Below, one piece after another: positions 23,241 to 51,282 of a DNA stretch of 64,000 nt. A program made the translations under genes and the position numbers. The DNA is from a virus: positions 1-64,000 of the IMG/VR virus record IMGVR_UViG_3300045988_174111. The stretch is one strand, 5' to 3'. Within the stretch, counting starts at the first letter, position 1, and each line of letters opens with the position of its first letter. The notes under the pieces were generated by a model. That model did no database searches, was not told the origin of the DNA, and saw only the letters and a program-made list of their open reading frames with translations.

Positions 23241-24851
23241 TTATTTTTTAGTTTGTTCATCACTCGCAGACATAGCACATGAAGTGTTTAAGAATTGAAT
23301 TGCAACAGAAACTGAATTTTCGAGAGCAACCCTTGATACTTTTGCAGGGTCAATGATTCCGGCCTCCAACATATCTTCTACTACCCCACTTTCGAAATTA
23401 AAGCCAAAGCCAAATTGAAGTTTTTCAAGGTCGACTTCAAGCCTTGTTGCGTTGACACAGGCATTTTCGCAAAGCTGTCTGAACGGTGCCAATAGAGCCT
23501 CAACAACGATATTCCAGCCATTAATAAAATCATTGCTTTTACCCTCATTTTCTTTGCACTCTCGTAAAACTTTAGCTGCTCGGAATTGAATAGTTCCACC
23601 TCCTGGAACGTACCCTTCCTCAAGAGCTGCTCTCGTAGCTGCAACAGCATCATCAACACGGTCTTTTCGCTCCTTCATTTCTACTTCGCTGTCCGCTCCT
23701 ACATATATAACTGCAGCACCACCAGTCAGCTTCGAAATTCTTTCGCGATATTTTTCAACATCATACGGATTCGAATTCTCCTCAATTAAATGTTTAATTG
23801 ACTCAACCCTCACATTTATATCCGCATCGGTTCCAACGCCACCTACGAGAATCGTACGATTTGTTGAAACCACTGAACGTTCGCATTCGCCAAGCCAATC
23901 AGTTCCAAGATGTTCGACAGACCGCCCATATTCATCACCAACAACTTTTGCGCCTACTTTAACGGCCAAGTCTTCTATCATGTCTTTTTGAATCTGACCG
24001 TATCCCGGAGCCTTAACGAAACATGCTTTCAGGCCATTCTGCTGTTGAACGTTTGTAACTAAGAATTTGATAACGTCATTTGACGCATTAGGAGCCACAA
24101 TCAAAATGCTCCGTTTCGCCGAATAAACTGTTTGAATAATCGGGAAAATTTCTTGGGGGTAATTGATATTTTGGCCAAAAATAAGAATGTATGGCTTATC
24201 AAGAACAGATTCCATTCGTTCGGGGTCTGTTACAAAGTAGGGATTCACAAGCCCCTTTTCCCACTGAAACCCTGTGGTAACTTCTACGGTCGTTTCGTTT
24301 CCCTTGCTACTTTCTTCAACAGTAATGACACCGTCATTTCCAACCTTCCCAATAGCTTCCGAGATAATACAACCAATCTCGTCGTCCCCGTTTGCGCTTA
24401 TTGTGGCAATTTGGCGTATTCTTTCAAATTCGTTCTTATCAATTTCCGTTGAAACAGAACGAATAAAGTCGGCAGCATAATCTTTTGCGGCCTCAATACC
24501 TTCCTTAAAGAGCTGTGGATTCTTAACATTTGGAAGAACCCCCATTCCTTCCTTAATTAGAGCACGAGTCAAAATCGTTGCAGTCGTTGTACCATCACCA
24601 GCCTCATCACAAGTTTTAGCAGCAACAGTTTTGACAAGGGTTGCCCCCATACGTTTCATCGAATTGTCTGTGTCATAAGCACGAGCAACAGTTACACCGT
24701 CTTTCGTGATATGAGGTATCCCAAATCCACGGTCAATAATAACTGAATGACCCTTTGGCCCAAGCGTAGAAGCCACTGCGTCTGTCAATTCATCAATGCC
24801 TTGGAATAAAGCCATCTGAGCTTTTTCCTTGAAAAAAATTTGTACGTTCAT
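23241..24851 (-). CDS. groEL: GroEL-like (Cpn60) chaperonin
   Basis: LGPKGHSVIIDRGFG, AGDGTTTATILTRALIKEG, PGGGT. Start taken at MNVQIFFKEKAQ (ATG 24849-24851), because the track extension overlaps the terminator hairpin. Confidence 0.9.
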   Translation of the reverse strand: MNVQIFFKEKAQMALFQGIDELTDAVASTLGPKGHSVIIDRGFGIPHITKDGVTVARAYDTDNSMKRMGATLVKTVAAKTCDEAGDGTTTATILTRALIKEGMGVLPNVKNPQLFKEGIEAAKDYAADFIRSVSTEIDKNEFERIRQIATISANGDDEIGCIISEAIGKVGNDGVITVEESSKGNETTVEVTTGFQWEKGLVNPYFVTDPERMESVLDKPYILIFGQNINYPQEIFPIIQTVYSAKRSILIVAPNASNDVIKFLVTNVQQQNGLKACFVKAPGYGQIQKDMIEDLAVKVGAKVVGDEYGRSVEHLGTDWLGECERSVVSTNRTILVGGVGTDADINVRVESIKHLIEENSNPYDVEKYRERISKLTGGAAVIYVGADSEVEMKERKDRVDDAVAATRAALEEGYVPGGGTIQFRAAKVLRECKENEGKSNDFINGWNIVVEALLAPFRQLCENACVNATRLEVDLEKLQFGFGFNFESGVVEDMLEAGIIDPAKVSRVALENSVSVAIQFLNTSCAMSASDEQTKK

Positions 24852-24885
24852 CTTGTTTTCGTTTTTTAAATTGTTTTTATTAAAA

Positions 24886-24920
24886 CGCCCGAAAACCATA
24901 TCTGTTCTAATTTTCGGGCG
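24886..24920 (-). terminator. Hairpin terminator after the RNR gene
   Basis: CGCCCGAAAA (24886-24895) pairs with TTTTCGGGCG (24911-24920). A T-run follows on the minus strand. Confidence 0.6.
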
Positions 24921-24931
24921 AATTTTTATAA

Positions 24932-27900
24932 TTAATTTCCATTCGGATTTTTAGGAGACCACGTGCAACTTCCTCCTGCACAGGCCGTAGCAATTTCACT
25001 TCCAGCCTCCTTCAGTTTAGGCTCTTCCCATACGATATTGTCGTAGGATACGGGTTTCATTCGGCATATTGCCTGCCACTTGTGGAACGCATTCACATGC
25101 TTCAGACAGTATGAAGTCTTTTGCTTGTCCCCGTTCATATATTTATCCGCAAATGAATTGAATCGACGTATCCAGTCTTTTCTTGTCTCGGCACGTCTTT
25201 TCAGAAAATCAATTACACAATTGACATCGGAGAAGCAAACCCCGTCAATATCTACCAAGAAATGCCCGTCTTTAATGTTTTCAACAACGAATTCGGCTAT
25301 CTGCTTGTCAGATATATCTAAGAGCTGTGGAGCTAAACCCATAGCCGCGTTGCAAGCTTCCCACACATCTTTAAATACATCGTTTGCATCCACTATCAAA
25401 CCGCTCGAAAGAATAGCTCCAGCACCATACCGTTGAGCAAGCTCAGTTTCATCCAAAACCTCTGTGTATGGAGCCTGTGGATAATCTAAGTCGCCAAAAG
25501 AAGACAGCAAGCTGATTCCCCCAAACTGGCTTCGATGATTCCAAAGGAACTCTCTTACATCGTCCCATTCATCTGGCTTTACCGTGCAAGTATTTGACAC
25601 ATTCATTCTCAGAGTAGGGTTTTCCTTTGTAGAGGGGTGGTCAGGATTTGTTCCATATTCTATCCAGTTCTGTTTTGTCAACAAAACATAATTCAAGAAT
25701 TCAATTGCAGAAAGGTCTTTTCTTAATAAAGCCCCCTTCGGAAGTGTAACAGGGAAAGCAATTACTTTTTCTCGGTCTGGTGCCCATGCGCTTTTTTCTA
25801 CCATGTCAGGATTTACTTTTTCCCATTCCTGAATGGCCTGTTCAGTGTCAGCGGCTTGAATGTGGCGAATATAATGACGAGAGTGGCCTGGAGTTATCCC
25901 GGACAAAGTTCCTAAAAGTTGAGAACTGTTTCCTGAGGGCTTGACAACCGTACATCGAGCAGCCTCATTGATACCTATCATTCTGGCAACCTTCTTATTC
26001 GTTTCTACGACAATTTTTGCGCCACGTTTTTGAACATCGGGATTGAATAAGATATCAGGATTCTCGCAAAGCCCCGTGATTCCAACCCCTATCAAAGCGT
26101 CTCTTTCGGCTATCATCTTAGACCACTTTTCAAGAACTTTAAAATCTGTGTAGCCAGCCTGCAAGGTACAGATAACAGAAGCAGCTTCGCACACATCGTA
26201 GAAGTCTTGCTCGCTCTGAACTTTTCCCCCGTTGATTTCCGCTAAATTACAGAATCCCCATCCTGAATGCGTAACTCCATCTTCGTCTTTAATTTGAGGG
26301 AACATTCCCACCTCGCCACAATTATGAACTAAAACTCCAGTACAATTTTCATAATTTTCATCACCTTTTGTAATGATATAAAAATTATGATTATCTTCCA
26401 CAGTTAAATCATAAACAGGCTCTACACCACAAGCGACAACAGATTCAACCCTAACAGAAATTTCTATTGATTCCTTCTCAGGCTTGATATATTCCCTTTC
26501 GTCAACTTCTTCAATATAAGGTTGTCCAGAAAGAACTAAATTTCTTAAGTTTTCAATCTTTCCACCAAACCTATTCTTGGACAAATTTTTAGGAAAACGA
26601 CTGTCTAATTTATTGCAATTTGCACAAGAAATATATCCACCGTTCTCATGAACTTTCTTGGCAATTTCATATAACTCTTTATTTGTTAACCCCTTGTATC
26701 TTCCGTTCTTTTCAAGAGTTGTAGAAATTGACATATTATGAGAATATGCTTTCACATCTTTTCTTCTAAACATCGGGTTATTTTCACCTAATCTTTCAGA
26801 AGCTGATTTTTCTTGATGTTCCCCCCTTTCAAGCAAATGTAAGTTTTCAATAAAATCTCCTTTGCCATTTTCAATGTGGTCAATATCAAAAGGAACATCC
26901 CCATTAAAATATTCCCAAATCATTCGGTATTGACGCGCATACCCATTACTTCGAGAACAAATTGTCCGATATTTTTCTTTTATCGTAAAGAAAGGTTGAA
27001 GTTCTTTCCCAACACACTTACATGCTTCCAAATAAGTTCCATCTTTCAAAGCAAGTTTATGATTTGGGGTGCACTTAAATTTCGTTCCGTCCGAAAGTGT
27101 TACTTCAACAACTTCCTTATCACCTGTTTTAAATGCTATTGCCTTTTTAATTTCAGGTTTCCATCTTTTCGAATTGCGTCCAGCTTTGTCAACCCACTTT
27201 CCAGAATACACGGGAAATTCTTTTACATTTTCCGCCAATTCTTTTATAGAAACGGCATTCCTTCCATCAGCAACCGCCACAAGAGTTTCCCCCGTAAAAC
27301 AAGGATTATATACAAAGTCTGTCTTATCAATGAACACGAATCCAGGCTCCCCATACAATTTCGTGAATTCAAATATTGAATCAAATGTTTCCTTTGGGGT
27401 ATCCGGAAGAATAGCAGCGGAATTATTACTTCGGCAAAGTTCTGGCATCGTTGAAATCCAATTTCCTGTTTTACAGGAAGCCATTTCAGCATCATCAGCA
27501 TCAAAAATACTTATCATTGCTGAACGTCGAACTCCCCCTGTCACAACGCTATTTGCACAGACACAAATCAGATAATGCAATTCAAATGGACGTAATTTAC
27601 GGCCTTTAATTTTTGTTAGAATACTGTGAAGCTTTTCTATCGCCAATTTCAAAGGTTCCGGTCCAGGAGCCTTGAATCCCCCACGAATATACGCGCCTTT
27701 GGGGCGAATTTCTGAATAGTCAAATTCAATGTCGGCACCACCATAATAATACGCTGTCATCAGCTTCCCAACGGCCTTTGCCCAGCCTTCAATCGTATCA
27801 GGAATCACAAATTTTTCTGGCTGTTGAACATTGCTGAAGCCTTTAGGAATCGGGAGTTTGTCGGTGTGAACCCTCTGAACACTGTACCCAGTACCAGCCC

Positions 27901-28252
27901 CACAAAGAAGGAGATACATAATTTCCTCGAATACCTGAACTCTATCTATGTAAGTTGATGAACAATTATAGAATCTCGCATGCTTTTCTAACATTAATTC
28001 ACCACCGTACTGAAGTGCGCGTTGGGCTCCCAAAATTCGCTTGTCCAGATAGAAATTATATGCTTTTGTAAACAATGCTGAAAATTCAGGCTCATCCTCA
28101 GGTTTTATTTGCCCAGCATACCTTTTGAAGTGCATATCCATAACTCTGGCAACGGCATCCTCCCACTTCTCTTTCTCCCCATTGTGAGTTTGTGAATACT
28201 TACTCAAAAAGATATATTCACCAACAACTTTTCGACTGTCTTTTTCAATCAT
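24932..28252 (-). CDS. nrdJ: Ribonucleotide reductase catalytic subunit, probably class II (NrdJ-like), intein-containing
   Basis: After intein removal the extein carries the thiyl-radical loop YNP-CGEVGMF (NPCGE). Also GGVRRSA and a C-terminal Cys pair ACAGGSC. No ATP-cone and no NrdB nearby. Confidence 0.8.
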   Translation of the reverse strand: MIEKDSRKVVGEYIFLSKYSQTHNGEKEKWEDAVARVMDMHFKRYAGQIKPEDEPEFSALFTKAYNFYLDKRILGAQRALQYGGELMLEKHARFYNCSSTYIDRVQVFEEIMYLLLCGAGTGYSVQRVHTDKLPIPKGFSNVQQPEKFVIPDTIEGWAKAVGKLMTAYYYGGADIEFDYSEIRPKGAYIRGGFKAPGPEPLKLAIEKLHSILTKIKGRKLRPFELHYLICVCANSVVTGGVRRSAMISIFDADDAEMASCKTGNWISTMPELCRSNNSAAILPDTPKETFDSIFEFTKLYGEPGFVFIDKTDFVYNPCFTGETLVAVADGRNAVSIKELAENVKEFPVYSGKWVDKAGRNSKRWKPEIKKAIAFKTGDKEVVEVTLSDGTKFKCTPNHKLALKDGTYLEACKCVGKELQPFFTIKEKYRTICSRSNGYARQYRMIWEYFNGDVPFDIDHIENGKGDFIENLHLLERGEHQEKSASERLGENNPMFRRKDVKAYSHNMSISTTLEKNGRYKGLTNKELYEIAKKVHENGGYISCANCNKLDSRFPKNLSKNRFGGKIENLRNLVLSGQPYIEEVDEREYIKPEKESIEISVRVESVVACGVEPVYDLTVEDNHNFYIITKGDENYENCTGVLVHNCGEVGMFPQIKDEDGVTHSGWGFCNLAEINGGKVQSEQDFYDVCEAASVICTLQAGYTDFKVLEKWSKMIAERDALIGVGITGLCENPDILFNPDVQKRGAKIVVETNKKVARMIGINEAARCTVVKPSGNSSQLLGTLSGITPGHSRHYIRHIQAADTEQAIQEWEKVNPDMVEKSAWAPDREKVIAFPVTLPKGALLRKDLSAIEFLNYVLLTKQNWIEYGTNPDHPSTKENPTLRMNVSNTCTVKPDEWDDVREFLWNHRSQFGGISLLSSFGDLDYPQAPYTEVLDETELAQRYGAGAILSSGLIVDANDVFKDVWEACNAAMGLAPQLLDISDKQIAEFVVENIKDGHFLVDIDGVCFSDVNCVIDFLKRRAETRKDWIRRFNSFADKYMNGDKQKTSYCLKHVNAFHKWQAICRMKPVSYDNIVWEEPKLKEAGSEIATACAGGSCTWSPKNPNGN
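26321..27301 (-). mobile_element. Intein (327 aa) with HNH endonuclease domain, in the RNR NPCGE active-site loop
   Basis: Begins CFTGETLVAVADG, has block B TPNH, ends VLVHN followed by +1 Cys. HNH motif DIDHIENGKGDFIENLHLLERGEH. Confidence 0.9.
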
Positions 28253-28673: not shown

Positions 28674-31178
28674 TTAACAATATATTAAACTTTTTCTTGC
28701 CCGAGTAATTGCAACAAATTGTAAACATTTTTCAGCATACATTGCCAAATCAGTTTTTGCAAATTTACTCGGAAGAAGTTCAGGTTTCAAAAAGAATATT
28801 CGGTCAGCTTCCAACCCTTTACTCTTATGGATAGTCGACAGAGTGATACCCCTGTCAGCATTCTCTACAAATATATCGTAAATCCGCGAGCGAACGGTTT
28901 CCAAATCGCCAAAATATTCATAAAGGCTTAATAATACATTCACTTTTTCATCAAGTTTATCGTACGCCTCACACTTTAGTGGATTCTTAACCCCTTTGTT
29001 TGCAAGCTTAGTTTGCATGTTAACAAGAACTTGCTCAAGCCCCCATACATCATCGACACTGTCTATAAGAGATACCAATTCATCTCCGAATTCCTTCCCT
29101 AAAATTGTACATTTCTTTCCTTGGCGAATTAATCGAATGAAAGCTTCTACTAGAGGGGCATTGTTTCGACACAGGATAAAATCTCCTTCCTTTGCATCCC
29201 TATAATCTCCTATTTCGACTGAACCTTTAATTGCGTCAGGCGCAGCAACTATACCATCAGGAAAAACTTTACAGGCCTCTTCGACAATATCCTTCGCACA
29301 TCGATACGTCATCGACAAAGGAAGAGTAACCGTGTTTGGTGCGTTCTTAATCGCATTAAGAGTATCAAGGTTTGACCCCTGAAAACCATAAATCGCCTGT
29401 TTTTCGTCTCCAACTCCCACAAGTCGTCCTCTTGGAGTCTTCAGCATTTTTATTAATTGATATTGCAATGGAGATAAATCTTGAATTTCATCAACCATTA
29501 CGACATTATACTGTTTGAAATCCTCTTTATGAACGTATTGAGTCGAATAATATAGCATATCGGTGAAGTCCATAGGAAGTTTCCCTCCCCCACCTTTTAG
29601 GAAGTAATTATCGGCAATCCTTTTGTTAAGCATACGGAGCTCTATTGCTCTCTCAGCGAGCTCTTCGTCAGCGTCCTCACCGTACCTCTCCGCCAATGAC
29701 ATTATCGCCTCTATATCGTCTGGTACGAGGTTAAATCTCATGAGGTCGTAGAGCCTACATACTTTCATTATCATTCCCGGAATACGCTTAGGATGAACGC
29801 CCTTGAATTTCATTTTTTCCTTTGCCAAATTAAAGTTTTTTGAATCCGACAAAGAAAAATTCAGATTAAATGCTTTGCGCAGACTTGACAAAGCACAGGA
29901 ATGAAGCGTCGAAGCCTTTACAGTTTTAGGAAGACGCTGTCCTAGTTCTTCAGCAATTGACTTATTGAAAGCCAAAAAGATTGAGCTTTTTATAGGAGGA
30001 GTAATTTCTGCAAGTTTACACAAAGTAAACGTTTTCCCAGAATTATGAGTAATAGTAAAATCCCCTAATAGATATCTATTATCTCCATCAACAGTAAAAC
30101 CAAACCACGCCCCCTTTCCAATAGATTTTAAAGAAAATCCAGTGTGAAGCACATCTTTTATCTGTTTTCTCTTACTTGCCTTTTTTCGTGAAAGAACGTT
30201 AGGAATAATCTCTGTATGGCCCGAAATCCCTATTCTAAGATAATATGCTTCAAAATTTCTTGATTTAATTGTTGAACGTTTCCATTTATAAGACGGATAT
30301 AACCCTAATGAACGAACTAAGTAAATAATTCCCTTTCCTAAGGATTCCCACTTTGTTGAAATCGAAAAACAACAACCATCACTCTTCTTATATCCATCAC
30401 TGTCAAGAAGCCCAGCAAGAAGTCTTAGCCTGTTTTCTTTTGAATTAATCAAATAATTCTGAGGAATAAAAACATTTCCAGATTTATCAACACATTTTTT
30501 AAATTCTTCTCTAAAAATGTTTTTAGAACCACTCCCTACGAATCTTACTTGAACGCAATTTTCACTATCATCTTTTATTTTACATTCAATTCCTTCCGGA
30601 AGAGGATAAGATAAAAGATAATCAATAATATCTGAATCTTGCTTACATATACTAAAATGTGGGCTTCCTTTATGCTTTGTCCCTTCCGCAAGCCATAGTC
30701 CTAACAAATAGGGGTCAACTGGAAGTTCCTTTTCCTCAAATTCAACACCTGTTCTAACGAGTTTTAAATGCCCAATTTTCCCATTACTTTTTTGAAATTT
30801 TAAAATTTCTTTAATATGCTTGTCGACTATATCAGAAGTCTTTGCCGAATTATACAACCTCATTGAACGAGTAATATATTGGTCGTGAACAGTAAAAATA
30901 TGTTCATCATTACATACCCATTTTTCACCCTTTTTCGGAGAAACTTCATACAAATTAGAAATTCCGCTATCAATTTTCAAAACATTTCTTGGGCAAGAAT
31001 CTGGACCCATCAATACATCCCCAACACGAATTTCTTGGGACAATTTTGTTGAGCCATCAAACATTAAAACTTCAACATCTTTTCCAAGACATCCCGCAGT
31101 CGCACTCACGAAAATGTTTCTGTTTGTTTTCTGATATTCTTCAATTATTGCCTGTTTGTATTCGTCTAATTTTGCCAT
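28674..31178 (-). CDS. uvrD: UvrD/PcrA/Rep-family SF1 DNA helicase, intein-containing
   Basis: The extein restores Walker A VSATAG-SGKTFTL. Also VMVDEIQD, GDEKQAIYGFQGS and TIHKSKGLE motifs. Confidence 0.85.
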   Translation of the reverse strand: MAKLDEYKQAIIEEYQKTNRNIFVSATAGCLGKDVEVLMFDGSTKLSQEIRVGDVLMGPDSCPRNVLKIDSGISNLYEVSPKKGEKWVCNDEHIFTVHDQYITRSMRLYNSAKTSDIVDKHIKEILKFQKSNGKIGHLKLVRTGVEFEEKELPVDPYLLGLWLAEGTKHKGSPHFSICKQDSDIIDYLLSYPLPEGIECKIKDDSENCVQVRFVGSGSKNIFREEFKKCVDKSGNVFIPQNYLINSKENRLRLLAGLLDSDGYKKSDGCCFSISTKWESLGKGIIYLVRSLGLYPSYKWKRSTIKSRNFEAYYLRIGISGHTEIIPNVLSRKKASKRKQIKDVLHTGFSLKSIGKGAWFGFTVDGDNRYLLGDFTITHNSGKTFTLCKLAEITPPIKSSIFLAFNKSIAEELGQRLPKTVKASTLHSCALSSLRKAFNLNFSLSDSKNFNLAKEKMKFKGVHPKRIPGMIMKVCRLYDLMRFNLVPDDIEAIMSLAERYGEDADEELAERAIELRMLNKRIADNYFLKGGGGKLPMDFTDMLYYSTQYVHKEDFKQYNVVMVDEIQDLSPLQYQLIKMLKTPRGRLVGVGDEKQAIYGFQGSNLDTLNAIKNAPNTVTLPLSMTYRCAKDIVEEACKVFPDGIVAAPDAIKGSVEIGDYRDAKEGDFILCRNNAPLVEAFIRLIRQGKKCTILGKEFGDELVSLIDSVDDVWGLEQVLVNMQTKLANKGVKNPLKCEAYDKLDEKVNVLLSLYEYFGDLETVRSRIYDIFVENADRGITLSTIHKSKGLEADRIFFLKPELLPSKFAKTDLAMYAEKCLQFVAITRARKSLIYC
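30042..31091 (-). mobile_element. Intein (350 aa) with LAGLIDADG endonuclease, in the helicase Walker A motif
   Basis: Begins CLGKDVEVLMFDG and ends FTITHN followed by +1 Ser. LAGLIDADG blocks LLGLWLAEGT and LLAGLLDSDGY. Confidence 0.9.
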
Positions 31179-32123: not shown

Positions 32124-34853
32124 CTATTTCTTTAAATGTTTTTGTAAAAATTTTCTTGCCAACAGCTCGTTTTCATTCAGCCCTTTATTCACGACCCCCG
32201 TAATAAGGCTTTTATCTTTAACGGTTTCCCTCATTTCTACATCTATTGTGTCGGGTGATAATAGGTAGGTGATATTTATACTATTCTTTTGCCCCATTCG
32301 TTCAAGACGACTGTTCGTTTGTTCCAAGTCCGTTGATTTGTCAGGCAACTCAATATAGAAGAGATTACTACAATTCTCCTGAAGACCGTCCGTACCTGTA
32401 CCAGCCGACTGAATGTTAGCGAAGAGCAAGCGATGTTTCTTCTCAGAAAACTCATTCACGATTTGTTGCTTCTTCTCTGATGAAACTCCACCCTGTATTA
32501 CAGGTGCTTTAAAGAACTTCGCCAGCTCCTGAAGCGGTTCACGGTGTACACCAAAGACCACCAACTGTTCGTCTTCATTCGCCTCTAACCAATCCTTGAT
32601 GTATGATTGTATGAACGGCAACTTCCCTTTCACCGACAGAGATTTCAGCGTATTAATCATCACAAGGTGTGGCGCGTTGACAGCATTGTTTGCTTTCTCA
32701 ATATCGATTTTTTCAAGATATGCTAATAAATCCGACTCGGCTCGCCTGTATTCTTTTAGATTCGTTATAGGGACATCAACTGTTTGCTCAACCAATGGTG
32801 GTAGCTCCTCAAGAACATCTCTTTTATTCCGTCGTATATAGCCACCCATCCGTAACAATTCATGAAGCTCCTCAAGGTTACTGAATCCGCTGTCGTCAAA
32901 TCCATAAACAGTTTGTTTTCCGTTGCAATATCTGAACTTGAATTCCAACGTATCACCAAAAATATCATCGAATCTTCTAATTATCTTGAAAGGCTGTATC
33001 AAGTCGGCTGGCTTATTCTGTGTCAGTGTACCTGTCAACCCCCACACATGCTGAATTCTCTTGGTTATCTTTTTAGCCATCTTTGTTCTCAAAGCCTTTT
33101 CAGACTTTAAGAAGTGTATTTCATCCAACGCACAAGACCCCCAATATTTCTTGAGTAGCTCCTTGAATTTTGCTGTGGGTTTTTCCATGTTACGTTCCCC
33201 GAGCACATCATAATTGATAACCACAACATCATTATTCCACACAGTTGGGTCAAACTTTCGCTTTCTTTCAATAACGCCTACTTTTCGGTCAGGCATCCAT
33301 TTTGCCCATTCCTTTTTCCAGTTATATTTCACAGATGCTGGGGTAACTATAAGAGCTGGAAACGCTGCCAATAATTCAATAAGAATAATTGTCTGGGCAG
33401 TATTATGAGTCACACAAAAATCATCACACAAATAAAGACCATCTTCATTCGACACCCTAATACACTGCATTTCTGCAAATCCCACAGGCTTAATTTCTAT
33501 AATTTTTCTCGTTGGAATATATTTTCGGGAAAAATTCAATCTATCGATTTTACGTTTCAGTTTAAATGGAATTATTTCTGGGGGGGGCATTATACTCAAC
33601 CTCCAAGAACGTTTGCATTCAATTATTTTCCCGTTCCTTTTGTATTTTCCAATCCGAACCCTTTCCCTACAAATTCCACCAAAACTTAAAACAAGCTGCT
33701 TGACATCTTCTTTTAATTGTTCTGAAGTCGAACTATAATTAATATGGCCACCCTTAGACACATAACCATCTGTATCCATTAACCCTCTAAGAATTTCAAG
33801 CCTTATTTCAGGAGTATTATACAAATAATCTTTTGGAATAAATTTATCATGAGAATGCGTTCCTAGCAGCCCATATTGCTTTAGCAGAAATTTCATAATG
33901 CTTCTTGAATTTTTGTTTTCAAGAACATTATCAATGTTTCCAATATGATAAGTAATATCATCGCTTGGCCTTTTATATATCATAGTTCCTTTTGGGAGAA
34001 TTAAATACTCAATAATTTCGTCGTCAATAGTTGTAAGCCCAACCCCATCAGAAATCCCCCCATCTCCTAATAAGCACCCTAATAAATAAGGGGAAATCGA
34101 AACATTTCTTTTAGAGTATTGGATTATACTTGTCATTGGAATTCGCCACCGATAAGATTTCTGACAAGAAGATAGATAAATATTTTCATTCATAATTTCC
34201 TTTAAAGAAAGTGTTTTAAAACCCTTTCCTCTTTTTACCCAATTATCCGTGGATACGTTCCATAAATGTTCTTCGCAACATCGAGTAAATGTTCCGTCTG
34301 AAAACTTAATTTGATACATCAATTTCCTACCTTGGGGGAATACTCCAATAACCTTTTGACTCTTTCCAGAAGGGCTTAAAATTTCATCACCGACCTTAAT
34401 ATCCCCCATGAATATAAACCCATCAGGCGTCAATATCTTTGTATCAAGAGGTTGCGCTTTTCCTAGCCCACAATCATCCCCATTGATACAGTTTCCATGA
34501 TTAATCATATAGGCAACCCCCTCGCACTGATAGGGACGAGGAATTCGCTTCATTCCTATCTCCTTACAGGCTTGCTCAACTTCATCGGCTGTTATCACCT
34601 CTTCGGGTTCCTCATAATCAATCACACGACGAGAGGGAACGTAGTTCATTCCCTCTTTGAATCCGTTCTCCTCAAGCCACTTCTTCAACGGATTCACCGT
34701 GACAAGGGAAAACGGTATGTACCACTCTTTATTTTGAGGATTCCAGCCTGCCCCAGCGAACTTCTTTACCGAAGTCACCAACGCAGGGTCGTAGGAAAAG
34801 CCAATGTACCACCAATCATGGTCTCTATACCAATATCTCATTTTCAAATTCAT
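32124..34853 (-). CDS. SNF2-family (SF2) helicase/translocase, intein-containing
   Basis: RPYQCEGV. The extein restores motif I DDCGLGK-TAQTI. Also DEIHFLK (DExH) and a helicase C-terminal domain (QSAGTGTDGLQ). Confidence 0.85.
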   Translation of the reverse strand: MNLKMRYWYRDHDWWYIGFSYDPALVTSVKKFAGAGWNPQNKEWYIPFSLVTVNPLKKWLEENGFKEGMNYVPSRRVIDYEEPEEVITADEVEQACKEIGMKRIPRPYQCEGVAYMINHGNCINGDDCGLGKAQPLDTKILTPDGFIFMGDIKVGDEILSPSGKSQKVIGVFPQGRKLMYQIKFSDGTFTRCCEEHLWNVSTDNWVKRGKGFKTLSLKEIMNENIYLSSCQKSYRWRIPMTSIIQYSKRNVSISPYLLGCLLGDGGISDGVGLTTIDDEIIEYLILPKGTMIYKRPSDDITYHIGNIDNVLENKNSRSIMKFLLKQYGLLGTHSHDKFIPKDYLYNTPEIRLEILRGLMDTDGYVSKGGHINYSSTSEQLKEDVKQLVLSFGGICRERVRIGKYKRNGKIIECKRSWRLSIMPPPEIIPFKLKRKIDRLNFSRKYIPTRKIIEIKPVGFAEMQCIRVSNEDGLYLCDDFCVTHNTAQTIILIELLAAFPALIVTPASVKYNWKKEWAKWMPDRKVGVIERKRKFDPTVWNNDVVVINYDVLGERNMEKPTAKFKELLKKYWGSCALDEIHFLKSEKALRTKMAKKITKRIQHVWGLTGTLTQNKPADLIQPFKIIRRFDDIFGDTLEFKFRYCNGKQTVYGFDDSGFSNLEELHELLRMGGYIRRNKRDVLEELPPLVEQTVDVPITNLKEYRRAESDLLAYLEKIDIEKANNAVNAPHLVMINTLKSLSVKGKLPFIQSYIKDWLEANEDEQLVVFGVHREPLQELAKFFKAPVIQGGVSSEKKQQIVNEFSEKKHRLLFANIQSAGTGTDGLQENCSNLFYIELPDKSTDLEQTNSRLERMGQKNSINITYLLSPDTIDVEMRETVKDKSLITGVVNKGLNENELLARKFLQKHLKK
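33402..34457 (-). mobile_element. Class 3-type intein (352 aa) with LAGLIDADG endonuclease, in SNF2 motif I
   Basis: Begins with Ala (AQPLDTKILTPDG) instead of Cys/Ser. Block B EEHLW (Trp), block F MQCIRV (Cys at the usual Asp position), and it ends VTHN followed by +1 Thr. LAGLIDADG blocks LLGCLLGDGG and ILRGLMDTDGY. Confidence 0.8.
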
Positions 34854-46815: not shown

Positions 46816-49800
46816 TTATAACGTCAAAGTCACTATATTCGTTTCGAAATTCGCTCTTAAAATATTTGAATCCTTACGATTATCGTATGACAAACAACCA
46901 TTTATAATAATTAAGTTCGAGCGGCTTCCCTCTAAAAGAGATGCCAATTGCTCATATTCCTGTTGAAATATAATGACTTCTAAGAATTCGTAATTTGCCT
47001 CTAAAATCAATCTGCACATAGTGTCACCTTTCCGAGTCTTTTTAATTTCCATATCGGAAACATAACCCGACACAACGACATATCCATTGTTAGGGCGGGA
47101 ATCCGTATCATTACAGTCTTCTACATTCGCAAATTCATAGGCATCCGGGAATTCTGACTTGAATCTTTCAAAGATTTGTTGATAGTCAAAGAAGGCCAAT
47201 CCTGAAACTTGTTTTTGTAGCAAAGCCCACCACCAAGAATCATTTGCGTGTAAATCCGCTCCTGACAGTACAGGGTCGTCGTCTTTTACTTCTGCTTTAA
47301 CCCCTACTAAAAAGTCAACAAGCAAATCAATTCGCTTAGAAATATCAGTAATGCCTTCTAATTTGTCAAATGCCCCTGCCAAAATTAAATTTCGAATAAT
47401 TCTATTATTCACAGCAGAACCTTTCCATTTGTGCCTTGTAATAAAATCATTCAAAGACCAATACTGGCCATTTTCTTTGCGTTCCTTAATAATTTGAGTC
47501 GCGGCTTTTTCTGCGACTTGTTTTACCCCAGTAATTGACCAATATAACGCCTTTTCTTCGAAATTAATCACTACGTCAACATCGGAAACATTAATGTCAA
47601 CTGGGCGAACTGTGCAAACGCCTGTCTTATTTATTTCTGCAATGTATCTTGAGTAATCTGTGTCCAAAGCATATTTAAACGCAACTGACCAATACTCAAT
47701 AGGATAGTGAACCTTTATCCATTGTGAAATATAGCCTGTAATCGCATAGGCAGCAGCGTGGCTTCGGTTGAACAGGTACGTCGAAGCCTTATCAATAGCG
47801 TCCCACACCTTTTCAGAGTATTCCTGGGTGACGTTATAGTTGTCCCGATAGTAAGGGATAAACCGTTCTTTATACTGCTGGAGAGCCTCGTATTTCTTCT
47901 TTACCATCGCTTTACGAACATCATCGGCTTCCACCAATGACAGCCCACCCAACTCACGACAAAGTTGCATGATTTGTTCTTGGTAGCAATTATGGACAAT
48001 TATTCCTCCAACTGTGAAACTATGAATATTTTCGACAGAGATATCATAGACCACCCTCTCCTCATCGTGTACAACTTCCTTCACCCTCCCCCACATATAA
48101 TTCGTAGGAGATTTTCTTGAAATTTTCTTTTTAGAAAGCATTCGATACGGTAAACAATAAAACAAATCTTTCCAAGAAACTGTCAATTTATTCAATCGGG
48201 GGAAAATAGAAGAATGAATCTGATAAGACTGTAAAGCAAAATATATGTCCTCAAGAAGAGAATTATTGCACATCTTCAAAGTATCATTTTTCAGGCACCC
48301 ATCGCCCTCTAATACCCCAGCAATCATATCCAAAGAATAATTACTTGGCAACCTTTTTTCATAGCAATTCTTCAGATAAAGTCCATATTTTTTCAAAAGA
48401 CTATTAAATTTGTTTTCTTGATAATTTTTACTAAAAAATCCATTCGATTTTCCTGAAACAGCTTTAACAGTCACTCTGATAGATTTACCAACATTTCCAG
48501 ATTTTTTCACCTGTGAACGTTCTTTTATTGTAACCTCAAAATCAGAATCTAATTCAAGTAACAATTCCCTTAATCTATTTGCAATTTCAAGATTTGAAAC
48601 TGTAAAATATGGAGAAGAATGCGTCGAAGTTCCTTCCGCAATAAAATACCCAATTAACCAATGCTCAAGTTTTTCCCTCTCCGTCAAGGAGTCAATTCTT
48701 ACAGGCTTTTCAAACCAACATTTTAGTTCATCATTTTTAACAAGATTCTGAGCCTCCACCCATCCACGTTTTGTTAAAATTTTATGGTCTGGAGTACAAA
48801 CAAGTTCCCTCCCAAAGTTAGAACGGACTCTAACTGTTTTCTTAACTCCATTATTTTTTAATAACAAAACTTTCTGAAAAGACCCGTCTTCAGTTTTAAC
48901 CATATCCCCAGGAATAATATCCTGGATTTTCTTAATTCCATTAAGAGTCAAAACTTCAGAATTTTCCGCAATACAGAAAACCCCATAAGTGTTATTAAGA
49001 ATCGATTCCGTTCCAACGAAATATTCTATCTCTTTCTTTCCTTCTTTTCTGACCACAAACTCATTGTGGAAGTTGTTCTCCATTGCTCCCGGACGATACA
49101 AAGAAATCGCTGCAATAAGGTCTTCAATATTATCAGGTTTCATTTGCTTACAATACCCTGTCAGCCCAGAACTTCCGAAGTGAAAATTATCTTCATTCCA
49201 CCCATTCTTAAAGTATCGATATACCTCCTTGTCATCCAAAGGAATACTGAAAATATCCAAGTCCACACCTTCGTGTTCCTTAACTAAACGAACCATATCT
49301 TGGAATTTGTCAAACTGTTTCACTCCAAGAACGTCTTCCTTTAGGAAACCTGCAGCATCCATTTCACCGCCTTCCCATTCAGTCACATATTCATCACCGC
49401 TCTTTCGAATAGGAACCCACCTAAACATGTCATTTTCATCCGGGAATACCATCATTGCACAAGCATGTATTGACTGAGCTTTAGGCGCAGGCATAATAAG
49501 CATTACTTCATTGATAAGGTCTGGGTGGCTCTTAACAAAATTCTTCACTTTCGAATTGGCACATGCAATTTTGAATAAATCTTCAGGTTTTCTGTCTTTA
49601 ACATCAAAAGCCTTCATCATCTCATTCGTAGACTGGAAATCTAGCCCATAAACTCTGGCCATATCCTTAATCGCAGCTCTTAGCTGAAGAGCACTATATG
49701 TTCCGACTGAACAAACCTGATTCCACCCGTATCGTTCTTCCATGTATTTCTTGACACGAGGACGGTCTTCCCCAGGATAGTCACAGTCAATATCAGGAAG

Positions 49801-51282
49801 AGATACCTTAACACGACCTGCATTCAAGAAACGTTCAAAAAGTAGATTATACCTCATCGGGTCTAACTTCGTAATTCCAAGAAGATAGGAAACAAGACAG
49901 CCCCCAGCAGAACCACGGCTGATTCCAGTCATTATCCCATTTCTGTGACACCAATTAATAATATCCCACGTAATTAAGAAATAATCAATTGCATCACCCA
50001 ATTTGATAACCCCTACTTCTCGGTCTATTCGCTCCATAATAACCTCTTCACCCCAATCCTCAATGAGGTCTGGGTGACGGTCAAGCCCATCCGATATAAG
50101 AGACCAAAAGAGGTCTTCATTCGTTTCAAATTTCTTGGCTTCTTCTTTTGTCATTTTATAACGCGGTAAATGTCTTTTTTTAACGTCAATGACAAAAGTA
50201 ATAGATTCGGCAATACTTTCAAGAAATTCCAAACCTTCTGTGAACCTTGAATAGACATCCATAAGGCCTTCATCTGTGTCTGGAAACATCTGTGAAAGCT
50301 CTGTAAATAATTGGTCGTTTGATTTGAAATATTGATTATCACTTTCGTATGCCGTTGTCCCTCCAATACTATGTAGGCGAGGCCTTATACAACTGTATTC
50401 TTCATCCAAATACCAAGCATCAACCGACGGAACAGGTAGCAAATTTCTATCCATGAAGAACTTTTTCAAGTTCTTCAAATACCATTCGTCCCTACTGTTA
50501 TCAACATATTCACATGGGTCAAGCTGATAGATAGCAGCATCCAAATTTAAACTTGATAAAACATCATAATCTAAGGTTTTGGGGTCCAGAAACAAAATCA
50601 AATCATCATTATCTCTCGTAATTTGATTAAAATCTTGAAGGCCAATGTATTTTGGATTGTCACAGTTTATGAACTTATTTATCGTCAAAAGGTCTTTCCA
50701 CCCCTTATCATTTCTTGCATACACTTTTACTGTGAATCTAATATCTCTTGGCTGGTCATATACGGTGCATTCCATCCCAATTATACTTTTCAGGCCGTTC
50801 TTTTGACATTCTGCCTGAAACTTCAAAGAACCAGCTAGCGAATTCTTTTCACAAATCCCTAAAGTGTTAACTCCAAGAAATTTAGCTTTTTTACACCAAT
50901 CAGAATACGTCCCGGAACCAGACATCATCTCATATTGGCCATGAACCCCAAGAAATACTTTAGTTTCAAATTCTTGTTTTGCAGCTCCAATATACTTCAA
51001 TCGTGTCAACTTGACATCATTTTCTTGCCCTTTTGACAACATGTAATACACCCCTCCAAATCGGTAAGCATAGAAGTCACAGTTTGTCTCAACTGTTCCA
51101 TCTTCAGCCCCACGATTGGGGTCAGCAGGAATTCCAACAAAATTGAAACTGTCATCAAACATCGCTCCGTCAAAGGCTTCTTTATACAGCTCAAAAGTCT
51201 TGCCGCCAATTTCAACTATATAGTCGGATAATTGTGTATAATCAAGTAAATTTTTTTCAAGGTATTCTTTAAATCTTTTCAT
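46816..51282 (-). CDS. dnaE: DNA polymerase III alpha subunit (DnaE-type), intein-containing
   Basis: PHP domain (LGVHGQYEMMSGSG...), palm PDIDCDYPGEDR, ISRGSAGG. The extein restores TYGVF-CYQEQIMQL (the YQEQxM motif). Confidence 0.9.
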   Translation of the reverse strand: MKRFKEYLEKNLLDYTQLSDYIVEIGGKTFELYKEAFDGAMFDDSFNFVGIPADPNRGAEDGTVETNCDFYAYRFGGVYYMLSKGQENDVKLTRLKYIGAAKQEFETKVFLGVHGQYEMMSGSGTYSDWCKKAKFLGVNTLGICEKNSLAGSLKFQAECQKNGLKSIIGMECTVYDQPRDIRFTVKVYARNDKGWKDLLTINKFINCDNPKYIGLQDFNQITRDNDDLILFLDPKTLDYDVLSSLNLDAAIYQLDPCEYVDNSRDEWYLKNLKKFFMDRNLLPVPSVDAWYLDEEYSCIRPRLHSIGGTTAYESDNQYFKSNDQLFTELSQMFPDTDEGLMDVYSRFTEGLEFLESIAESITFVIDVKKRHLPRYKMTKEEAKKFETNEDLFWSLISDGLDRHPDLIEDWGEEVIMERIDREVGVIKLGDAIDYFLITWDIINWCHRNGIMTGISRGSAGGCLVSYLLGITKLDPMRYNLLFERFLNAGRVKVSLPDIDCDYPGEDRPRVKKYMEERYGWNQVCSVGTYSALQLRAAIKDMARVYGLDFQSTNEMMKAFDVKDRKPEDLFKIACANSKVKNFVKSHPDLINEVMLIMPAPKAQSIHACAMMVFPDENDMFRWVPIRKSGDEYVTEWEGGEMDAAGFLKEDVLGVKQFDKFQDMVRLVKEHEGVDLDIFSIPLDDKEVYRYFKNGWNEDNFHFGSSGLTGYCKQMKPDNIEDLIAAISLYRPGAMENNFHNEFVVRKEGKKEIEYFVGTESILNNTYGVFCIAENSEVLTLNGIKKIQDIIPGDMVKTEDGSFQKVLLLKNNGVKKTVRVRSNFGRELVCTPDHKILTKRGWVEAQNLVKNDELKCWFEKPVRIDSLTEREKLEHWLIGYFIAEGTSTHSSPYFTVSNLEIANRLRELLLELDSDFEVTIKERSQVKKSGNVGKSIRVTVKAVSGKSNGFFSKNYQENKFNSLLKKYGLYLKNCYEKRLPSNYSLDMIAGVLEGDGCLKNDTLKMCNNSLLEDIYFALQSYQIHSSIFPRLNKLTVSWKDLFYCLPYRMLSKKKISRKSPTNYMWGRVKEVVHDEERVVYDISVENIHSFTVGGIIVHNCYQEQIMQLCRELGGLSLVEADDVRKAMVKKKYEALQQYKERFIPYYRDNYNVTQEYSEKVWDAIDKASTYLFNRSHAAAYAITGYISQWIKVHYPIEYWSVAFKYALDTDYSRYIAEINKTGVCTVRPVDINVSDVDVVINFEEKALYWSITGVKQVAEKAATQIIKERKENGQYWSLNDFITRHKWKGSAVNNRIIRNLILAGAFDKLEGITDISKRIDLLVDFLVGVKAEVKDDDPVLSGADLHANDSWWWALLQKQVSGLAFFDYQQIFERFKSEFPDAYEFANVEDCNDTDSRPNNGYVVVSGYVSDMEIKKTRKGDTMCRLILEANYEFLEVIIFQQEYEQLASLLEGSRSNLIIINGCLSYDNRKDSNILRANFETNIVTLTL
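47989..48975 (-). mobile_element. Intein (329 aa) with LAGLIDADG endonuclease, in DnaE next to the YQEQ motif
   Basis: Begins CIAENSEVLTLNG, has block B TPDH, ends GGIIVHN followed by +1 Cys. LAGLIDADG blocks WLIGYFIAEGT and MIAGVLEGDGC. Confidence 0.9.

Follow-up and report, generated by a model that had tools for sequence, protein, structure and literature searches.

A probable mobile class 3 intein with a LAGLIDADG endonuclease in the Walker A motif of an SNF2 helicase from a gut phage

How could a phage obtain a working helicase from a gene whose Walker A motif is interrupted by 352 codons? The question is raised by an ORF on the minus strand of the 64,000-nt window, by which we mean the whole stretch of viral DNA analysed here. 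The ORF bears the features of the SNF2 family: a SNF2 ATPase domain with a Walker A GxGKT motif (Pfam SNF2-rel_dom, PF00176, 2.6e-21) and a helicase C-terminal domain (Helicase_C, PF00271, 2.4e-5). The interruption falls between Lys132 and the Thr of the Walker A motif (GLGK/T, the slash marking the junction). Judging from its sequence, we consider it very likely to be a mobile, bifunctional class 3 intein, recognizable by Ala1 and a Trp-Cys-Thr (WCT) triplet.

The limits of the insertion can be read from alleles that lack it. Intein-free alleles with exteins 76-96% identical, such as protein cluster P0113 (1428 sequences), run ungapped through GLGK-TAQT, so that the insertion measures exactly 352 codons, and the interval 33402-34457 proposed in a first-pass annotation of this DNA is correct to the base. 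Conceptual splicing yields a product of 557 aa with GLGK-T restored, and intein-free orthologues are 552-554 aa long. The GC content of the intein is 0.344, against 0.455 and 0.407 for the exteins. Plus-strand ORFs overlapping the intein (e.g. 33405..33689) were dismissed as mechanical only, and tRNA and Rfam scans of the 64,000-nt window found nothing. The gene and its parts are laid out as follows.

32124..34853, minus strand: SNF2-family helicase gene, a single intein-bearing ORF of 909 codons plus stop
34458..34853, minus strand: N-extein, aa 1-132, up to the Walker A Lys (...GDDCGLGK); intein-free alleles join it directly to the C-extein
33402..34457, minus strand: intein, 352 aa, aa 133-484 of the ORF, K/AQPLDTKILTPDG ... 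FCVTHN/TAQTI, placed by HINT and LAGLIDADG evidence
32124..33401, minus strand: C-extein, TAQTIILIELL... to the stop codon, placed by the ORF translation and intein-free alleles
34419..34457, minus strand: block A, AQPLDTKILTPDG; residue 1 is Ala (34455..34457), without an N-terminal nucleophile
34254..34295, minus strand: block B, GTFTRCCEEHLWNV, containing EEHLW with Cys61 (B:7), His64 (B:10) and Trp66 (B:12); HLW at 34260..34268
34059..34091, minus strand: first LAGLIDADG motif, PYLLGCLLGDG (Asp132), aligning with YLLGLWIGDG of PI-SceI
33834..33845, minus strand: endonuclease block D, KFIP (Lys205), aligning with K-N-I-P of PI-SceI
33765..33794, minus strand: second LAGLIDADG motif, ILRGLMDTDG (Asp228, Asp230), aligning with LAGLIDSDG of PI-SceI; Pfam LAGLIDADG_3 (PF14528), 5.8e-11
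33426..33473, minus strand: block F, EMQCIRVSNEDGLYLC, containing MQCIRV with Cys332 (F:4; 33462..33464), the proposed first nucleophile; Tyr342 is the conserved block F aromatic
33399..33410, minus strand: end of block G plus Thr+1; VTHN at 33402..33410, with Thr350 (G:5), His351 and Asn352, then Thr+1

Within the intein, a LAGLIDADG homing endonuclease domain (about residues 106-300) interrupts a HINT splicing domain (about residues 1-105 and 301-352). An AF2 model (pLDDT 93.3, pTM 0.91) has this same two-part architecture; in Foldseek it ranks highest against PI-SceI, TliVMA and PI-PfuI, all full-length inteins with an endonuclease, and its HINT part matches MchDnaB-1, Msm DnaB-1 and gp41-1. 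The endonuclease displays the membership features of the PI-SceI-like LAGLIDADG group, namely two motifs with acidic residues and a block D Lys, all of them intact, in agreement with an earlier description of the domain as full-length. Conservation follows the same residues: G127, G131 and G133 of the first motif are invariant in the alignment and D132 nearly so, K205, F206 and P208 of block D are invariant in alignment A2, and L226, D228 and G231 of the second motif are invariant, as is Y342 of block F.

The splicing domain carries the features that define class 3 (Tori et al. 2010): a HINT domain with blocks A, B, F and G, no Cys, Ser or Thr at position 1, Trp at B:12, Cys at F:4, Thr at G:5 followed by His-Asn, and Thr+1. 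Every residue quoted in the first-pass annotation (Ala1, EEHLW, MQCIRV, VTHN and Thr+1) is present, and the VYDLTV that it set against MQCIRV is indeed read at the equivalent block F position of the RNR intein in the same window. It had further proposed an alignment with curated class 3 inteins; the references used for it were the solved DnaB-1 inteins of Msm and Mch, in place of the Deinococcus radiodurans Snf2 intein. In phmmer and family-profile alignments, His64, Trp66, Cys332 and Thr350 fall onto His65, Trp67, Cys124 and Thr143 of MchDnaB-1 (6rix), with HLW opposite H65-Q-W67, CI(R)V opposite C124 and THN opposite T143-H-N145, and Cys332 also aligns with Cys118 of Msm DnaB-1 (6bs8); the formal profile alignment places the W/C/T residues at B:12, F:4 and G:5. 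In class 3 inteins, the catalytic set comprises Cys124-His65-Thr143 together with Trp67 (Beyer 2020, PMC7664689).

The match to class 3 claimed earlier is also borne out by conservation. Among 87 full-length metagenomic homologues (30-47% identity), the block F Cys and the block G Thr are found in every sequence (87/87 each), as is the block B His (87/87), while the block B Trp and the His-Asn pair are each found in 86/87; position 1 is Ala in 79 and Ser in four of the 87, and the +1 residue is Thr in 76 and Ser in eight of the 86 homologues for which it was retrieved. The same signature holds in the best 80 bacterial genome loci, with Cys at F:4 in 80/80. One position of block F counts against the assignment: usually His in the intein family, it is Gly in the phage intein, although the His at the equivalent position is dispensable in the MP-Be DnaB intein (PMC2807308). 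The residue alignment, the lack of a position-1 nucleophile, Thr+1 and a helicase P-loop site like that of Tori 2010 (PMC2807308) together support placing the intein in class 3 by its signature; the definition of the class and its precedents in SNF2 proteins and P-loops are found in PMC2807308, PMC5222942 and PMC5050341.

Signs of recent horizontal movement, or homing, come from comparing the intein with its host gene. The intein is polymorphic for presence: most close relatives lack it, and at this one site it is present in eight protein clusters and in the IMG/VR locus L001. Between the loci L058 and L059, dS is 0.03 for the intein and 1.6 for the exteins, and it is this disagreement in silent-site divergence that suggests recent homing. 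The low GC content of the intein relative to its exteins and the low dN/dS of its endonuclease domain (0.04-0.21) are further indirect signs. Silent changes just downstream of the insertion site are also common to the intein-bearing alleles, in which the flank reads ACTGCCCAGACAAT...; the intein-free site reads, for example, ...GATTGTGGGTTGGGTAAG/ACAGCCCAGACGATTATT... Two sets of apparent insertions were set aside. Larger ones in the IMG/VR loci L009, L016, L019, L020 and L022 proved to be an intein-free SNF2 gene joined to a separate downstream UvrD intein, and 797-aa GIY-YIG/NUMOD3 "alleles" (P0106-P0111) reflect an upstream endonuclease ORF fused to the N-terminus by gene calling.

Whether the signature residues are used as in class 3 has to be weighed against a class 2-like route, in which Thr+1 would directly attack the Lys132-Ala1 bond and Cys332 would be merely supporting or structural. 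Ala1 also occurs in class 2 (KlbA) inteins, and for signature-bearing inteins either class 2 or class 3 splicing is possible in principle until Cys F:4 is mutated, an absolute requirement for this Cys and a thiol-labile block F branched intermediate being what separates class 3 from class 2 (Tori & Perler 2016, PMC5222942). Class 2 inteins, however, pair Ala1 with an attacking Cys+1, have Asp at F:4 and lack the WCT triplet (PMC2807308; Cys+1 and Asp also in PMC7664689), whereas the phage intein has Thr+1, Cys at F:4 and the triplet, and Cys F:4 is invariant among the 87 homologues while position 1 varies (A, S, P, E, V, G). We regard the class 2-like route as distinctly improbable. Class 1 splicing relies on Cys or Ser at position 1, where this intein has Ala; the other four inteins of the window all begin with Cys. 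It counts against reading the class 3 route from the signature that WCT and Ala1 grafted onto gp41-1 (6riz) gave no splicing (PMC7664689). Class 3 splicing, with Cys332 as the first nucleophile, is the most likely mechanism predicted from the sequence.

An intein with this signature could also be decaying or splicing-dead, leaving the SNF2 gene effectively inactivated in the phage. There is precedent for decay in an Arthrobacter class 3-like intein, documented as a pseudogene (PMC3196547), and some relatives show decay, such as that of Parabacteroides phage PF672P1 with its degenerate second LAGLIDADG motif. Here, by contrast, the 909-codon frame is unbroken and the catalytic residues of both domains are all intact. 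The dN/dS estimates show purifying selection on all domains: in the intein they are about 0.1 per domain (HINT-N, endonuclease and HINT-C), mostly 0.05-0.15 in informative pairs with a maximum of 0.28, and range from 0.04 to 0.21 for the endonuclease domain, while the exteins of intein-bearing alleles give 0.03-0.10. One intein-bearing protein cluster moreover comprises 227 sequences, and 22 contigs of up to 109 kb were found to carry it. Decay is therefore very unlikely, and scarcely credible is the proposal that the insert is no intein at all, being instead an in-frame free-standing homing-endonuclease gene or a permanently kept helicase domain. LAGLIDADG genes do exist as free-standing or intron-encoded ORFs, and in relatives a GIY-YIG endonuclease ORF adjoins SNF2 and is fused to it in some gene calls; yet the endonuclease here sits inside a HINT domain that is complete, having all four blocks (A, B, F and G) and closing in His-Asn ahead of a Thr, and, from the established role of the motif, a Walker A GxGK/T split by 352 residues could not function. 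The intein is real and probably active.

For a class 3 intein at this site, the following course of events can be proposed. Translation would produce a 909-aa precursor, presumably inactive because its P-loop is split. Cys332 (F:4), positioned by His64 and Trp66, would attack the Lys132-Ala1 peptide bond to form a branched thioester, and the N-extein would then be transferred onto the side chain of Thr+1 (33399..33401), which opens the C-extein and is also the Thr of the Walker A motif. Cyclization of Asn352, assisted by His351, would release the intein, and an O-to-N shift would restore GLGK-T in an active 557-aa helicase. During co-infection, the endonuclease would cut the GLGK/T-coding site of intein-free alleles, and repair would copy the intein into them.

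A regulatory addition to this scheme is conceivable at block B, where B:7, usually Thr or Ser, is Cys in the phage intein. By analogy with the Cys48-Cys118 redox trap demonstrated for the class 3 Msm DnaB-1 intein (PMC6195587), a reversible disulfide between Cys332 and the Cys60-Cys61 pair might act as a redox switch that blocks splicing under oxidizing conditions, an idea that we rate as improbable. If true, it would tie SNF2 activity and phage replication to the redox state of the anaerobic gut host. Of the 87 homologues, 56 have Cys at B:7 and 26 have Ser; that Ser is often found at this position in the intein family speaks against such a switch.

Among known inteins, Msm and MchDnaB-1 (class 3; 6bs8, 6rix and 6riy) resemble the phage intein in that Ala1, His-x-Trp, Cys F:4 and Thr-His-Asn align residue for residue, and they occupy a helicase P-loop site directly before the Ser/Thr that serves as +1 nucleophile. 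Their HINT domains are about 28-33% identical to that of the phage intein. They differ in being endonuclease-free mini-inteins (about 140 aa) in a bacterial DnaB host (Mycobacterium smegmatis and M. chimaera), whereas the phage intein has 352 aa, a full LAGLIDADG domain, a phage SNF2 host and Cys at B:7. The DnaB intein of mycobacteriophage Bethlehem (MP-Be), the founding member of class 3 (Tori et al. 2010, PMC2807308), shares the phage helicase host, the lack of an N-terminal nucleophile, WCT, Thr+1 and an endonuclease domain; compared by its published description, it differs in Pro1, its DnaB host protein and a different host phylum. Its endonuclease was suggested to be active by toxicity in E. 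coli that persisted until a spontaneous I224S change in the endonuclease motif (PMC2807308). The first-pass annotation had held that class 3 would be extended by a member from a Bacteroidota phage that still has its full LAGLIDADG endonuclease, which is overstated: the MP-Be DnaB endonuclease domain has been known since 2010 (PMC2807308), and relatives occur in 859 GenBank phage records, with the same signature in phages BS-TP3 and PF672P1.

The Deinococcus radiodurans Snf2 intein (Brace et al. 2010, as relayed in PMC2807308 and PMC5222942) is likewise class 3 and SNF2-hosted according to those accounts, and differs in its cellular host and distant relationship. It is absent from the best 80 genome loci and from the matches to the SNF2 intein of Deinococcus rufus; relatives of the phage intein in other Deinococcus species (L077 and L118) and in Hymenobacter (L065 and L067) show 34-37% identity to it (tblastn), the same DDMGLGK/T site and the same signature. 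In an NJ tree that is star-like and has no bootstrap, a deep clade of their own separates the phage SNF2 inteins from bacterial SNF2-site inteins. The closest full-length relatives outside the phage SNF2 alleles are metagenomic and bacterial PhoH inteins (AQPLD...THN/T; 38-47% identity), which have both the LAGLIDADG domain and the A1/W/C/T signature in common with it and often sit at a Walker A GK/T; they differ in host protein and in a second target site, MRGR/T, which dominates bacterial genomes with 55 of the best 80 loci. Among PDB sequences, the N-terminal HINT half is matched best by the cyanophage-like gp41-1 (6qaz; E 1e-9 for the single sequence, 4e-18 for the family profile), which shares EEHL and Thr-His-Asn but belongs to class 1, having Cys1, with Phe at B:12 and with Asp at F:4. 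PI-SceI and VMA-type inteins share the two-domain architecture (Foldseek E 1e-17, TM about 0.6-0.7), and their LAGLIDADG motifs and K-x-I-P align; PI-SceI is nevertheless class 1 (Cys1), about 16% identical and 454 rather than 352 aa long, and has an extra DNA-recognition region that the phage intein lacks.

The intein is one more member of a kind that is very large and has been described before. Beyond the 859 phage records, of which three were inspected and all have the signature (including Bacteroides phage BS-TP3 and Parabacteroides phage PF672P1, with A1/W/C/T), relatives occur in at least 600 bacterial genomes, and bacterial SNF2 genes carry the same signature at the same site. A first search with the intein as query reached a maximum identity of 45%, which is not to be read as rarity because near-identical SNF2 alleles surfaced once the extein was used as query. 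A megablast search of 50,697 phage records brought up nothing for the gene, so that the phage itself is not in the GenBank phage set. The best cultured-phage extein matches are to Tenacibaculum and Cellulophaga phages (38-41%), related contigs derive from human gut metagenomes, and a Bacteroidota host is suggested.

Knowledge of intein mechanisms and distribution is unchanged by this intein, and its value lies mainly in annotation. In the few GenBank records viewed, relatives are poorly annotated as "terminase large subunit", as "hypothetical protein" or as split "helicase 1"/"helicase 2"; the 909-aa ORF is predicted to combine an ordinary SNF2 helicase of 557 aa with an element that removes itself. 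As a well-bounded, natural, full-length intein with a class 3 signature and matched intein-free alleles, it would be convenient for splicing and homing assays.

One uninterrupted ORF of 909 codons on the minus strand (32124..34853) contains the coordinates of the SNF2 intein and encodes an SNF2-related ATPase domain and a helicase C-terminal domain (Pfam). The SNF2 match is stretched across residues 108-701 because a foreign segment lies inside it, itself matching LAGLIDADG_3 and, weakly, Hom_end_hint (Pfam). Translation places the junctions at ...NGDDCGLGK↓AQPLDTKILTPDG ... DDFCVTHN↓TAQTIILIELL... (arrows mark junctions throughout), and the Walker A motif GLGK-T is regained once the insert is taken out. 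With the conceptual splice product as query, more than 700 SNF2 homologues were found, the best 120 being 76-96% identical and located on contigs of ~100-110 kb, at least one with a human gut metagenome label. Most of these 120 are 552-554 aa long with an ungapped GLGK-T(A/G/M)QT, and an intein-free example with ungapped GLGK-T is P0113, a cluster of 1428 sequences. A 352-residue insert, 83-95% identical, occupies the identical position in eight clusters of 904-909 aa (P0125, P0126, P0132, P0133 with 227 members, P0134, P0136, P0137 and P0185). Since empty-site alleles exist, both boundaries are fixed to the codon, and the first-pass annotation's intein at 33402-34457 is borne out. Among IMG/VR loci with a (nearly) full-length homologue match, 1/48 (L001) carries the insert, a ~63% identical copy at the identical site in a more divergent phage.

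Five inteins lie in the 64-kb window, all on the minus strand; the SNF2 intein alone lacks Cys1:

26321..27301, minus: class II RNR intein, 327 aa, HNH-like insert, C1...HN↓C
30042..31091, minus: UvrD-like helicase intein, 350 aa, LAGLIDADG, in Walker A AG↓SGKT
33402..34457, minus: SNF2 intein, residues 133-484, 352 aa, mapped exactly from translation
47989..48975, minus: DNA polymerase III alpha intein, 329 aa, LAGLIDADG, TYGVF↓CYQEQ
61063..61494, minus: large terminase intein, 144-aa mini-intein in Walker A SHGK↓S

Up to three inteins (plus 14 introns) were described in one genome of the crAss-like Zeta group, a group whose intron and intein density was termed unprecedented (Yutin et al. 2021). 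The SNF2 and UvrD inteins come and go independently: four related loci (L052-L055) have the former and an intein-free UvrD of 484 aa, and L059 and the window (28674..31178) have both, with a UvrD of 834 aa. In some close relatives (L058:264-713) the DNA ligase and SNF2 genes are separated by a GIY-YIG/NUMOD3 homing-endonuclease ORF, which several gene calls join in frame to the N-terminus of SNF2 (P0106-P0111, 797 aa); the window is without this ORF, and its SNF2 start is overlapped by the ligase ORF. For a phage of ~107 kb the gene repertoire is unusual, including a Cpn60/GroEL-type chaperonin (23241..24899), a DnaE-type DNA polymerase III alpha subunit (46816..51282) and a B12-dependent class II RNR (24932..28252). 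Scans of the 64-kb window found no tRNA genes or Rfam families.

In a phmmer search against all PDB chains, the N-terminal HINT half aligns with gp41-1, the class 3 intein Msm DnaB-1 (6bs8) and MchDnaB-1 (6rix, 6riy). A family profile built from 18 members aligns HLW on His65-Gln-Trp67 of MchDnaB-1, Q-C-I-R-V on V-R-C124-V-E-V and V-T-H-N on P-T143-H-N145; the class 3 catalytic set is Cys124-His65-Thr143 plus Trp67 (Beyer et al. 2020, PMC7664689). Both alignments agree with the earlier placement of the Trp, Cys and Thr residues at class 3 positions, and the formal block alignment, set beforehand as a possible refutation, does not move them elsewhere. Class 3 was defined by the lack of an N-terminal nucleophile, by Trp B:12, Cys F:4 and Thr G:5 (WCT) and by Ser/Thr at +1, in putative helicases including SNF2, with P-loop insertions in most (Tori et al. 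2010, PMC2807308). All of these sequence features are present in the SNF2 intein, supporting the class 3 interpretation as a signature-based assignment. A confident AlphaFold2 model (pLDDT 93.3, pTM 0.91; 53-sequence alignment) resembles the full-length endonuclease-bearing inteins PI-SceI, TliVMA and PI-PfuI, and its predicted HINT part resembles MchDnaB-1, Msm DnaB-1 and gp41-1.

Because position 1 is Ala, the standard class 1 acyl shift is impossible. The SNF2 intein very probably splices by the class 3 route: Cys332 would attack the Lys132-Ala1 bond, the N-extein would be handed to Thr+1, Asn352 would cyclise and an O-to-N shift would follow. A class 2-like direct attack is told apart from class 3 only by mutating Cys F:4 (Tori & Perler 2016, PMC5222942), and grafting Ala1 and WCT onto gp41-1 was not enough for splicing (Beyer et al. 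2020, PMC7664689). A class 2 intein, however, would be expected to have Cys+1 and Asp F:4, whereas the SNF2 intein has Thr+1 and Cys F:4, the latter conserved more strictly across the family than position 1; the class 3 route is the best supported. Counts over 87 sequences (the query and 86 full-length homologues at 30-47% identity) are as follows:

Ala1: 79/87 (Ser in 4)
Block B His: 87/87
Trp B:12: 86/87
Cys F:4: 87/87
Thr G:5: 87/87
His-Asn: 86/87
+1 residue, among the 86 retrieved homologues: Thr 76, Ser 8

Bacterial genomes hold at least 600 loci of the family, and the 80 best of them show a matching pattern. Across six alleles of the SNF2 intein (Nei-Gojobori), most informative pairs have a dN/dS of 0.05-0.15, and no pair with dS above 0.1 goes beyond 0.28; each of the three parts (N-terminal HINT, endonuclease, C-terminal HINT) follows this on its own. 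For the exteins of alleles with the intein the values are 0.03-0.10. With dN/dS low in intein parts and exteins alike, splicing residues, endonuclease and helicase are all under purifying selection, which speaks against a dead element.

The two LAGLIDADG motifs, PYLLGCLLGDG and ILRGLMDTDG, line up with their PI-SceI counterparts, as does a K-F-I-P block, and all three are invariant or nearly so across the family. Recent homing is suggested by four lines of evidence: polymorphism for presence or absence at one single site; intein/extein discordance, with an almost identical intein (dS 0.03) against an extein dS of 1.6 between L058 and L059, a similar discordance in L052 and L057, and a window allele that is mosaic relative to L058 (dS 0.99 in HINT-N, 0.10-0.17 elsewhere); a GC content of 0.344 in the intein (33402..34457) versus 0.455 in the N-extein and 0.407 in the C-extein; and silent differences immediately downstream of the insertion site, common to intein-bearing alleles of different backgrounds (ACTGCCCAGACAAT... 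versus ACAGCCCAGACGAT...), consistent with co-conversion or target immunity. The neighbouring UvrD intein region is likewise AT-rich (GC ~0.33).

The SNF2 intein belongs to a known, very large kind. By tblastn against GenBank phages, relatives occur in 859 records (832 near full length), including Mycobacterium, Salmonella, Vibrio and Klebsiella phages. The protein gp36 of Bacteroides phage BS-TP3 has PGMGK↓AQPLY...EEHIW...CVCIKV...VTHN↓T plus the two LAGLIDADG motifs, Parabacteroides phage PF672P1 has GGGK↓ALIIS...EDHLW...CRCIKV...VTHN↓T, and the SF2 helicase of Salmonella phage vB_SalM_SA002 (MN445183.1 217442..220032) has an insert of matching type. Public annotations miss the Salmonella and BS-TP3 inteins: the Salmonella phage helicase is entered as a pair of genes, 'RAD2/SF2 helicase 1' and '2', flanking the intein start, and gp36 as 'terminase large subunit' with a note citing a DnaB structural match. 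An endonuclease domain was already present in the founding class 3 intein (PMC2807308); mycobacteriophage class 3 inteins with LAGLIDADG domains have been assayed, and the Lys↓Thr P-loop site is termed "classic" (PMC5050341). Given these 859 records and the endonuclease-bearing founder, the first-pass suggestion that a Bacteroidota-phage example with a full LAGLIDADG endonuclease extends class 3 was overstated. A Bacteroidota host is itself plausible but unproven; the extein's best cultured-phage matches are Tenacibaculum and Cellulophaga phages (38-41%) and a Bacteroides phage (31%), and megablast of the SNF2 gene (32124..34853) against GenBank phages gave no match.

Phage SNF2 alleles aside, the nearest relatives are PhoH inteins from metagenomes that sit at Walker A sites (up to 47% identity). 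In bacterial SNF2 genes (Deinococcus, Hymenobacter (Bacteroidota), Nitrosomonas and others), relatives of 34-42% identity occupy the same ...GLGK↓T site. The commonest bacterial home of the family is the PhoH site ...PLA(F/Y)MRGR↓TLND..., not the P-loop; it accounts for 55 of the 80 best loci (L060-L139) across Actinomycetota, Acidobacteriota, Deinococcota and others, with the HLW/Cys/THN signature in all and Ser1 in some. An unbootstrapped NJ tree is star-like, with the phage SNF2 inteins as a separate deep clade. Against the family profile, gp41-1, a class 1 intein, matches about as well as bona fide class 3 DnaB inteins do, and ~5-12% of family members combine Ser1 with an intact WCT; both features, though not specific to the window, touch the debate on a possible origin of class 3 from class 1.
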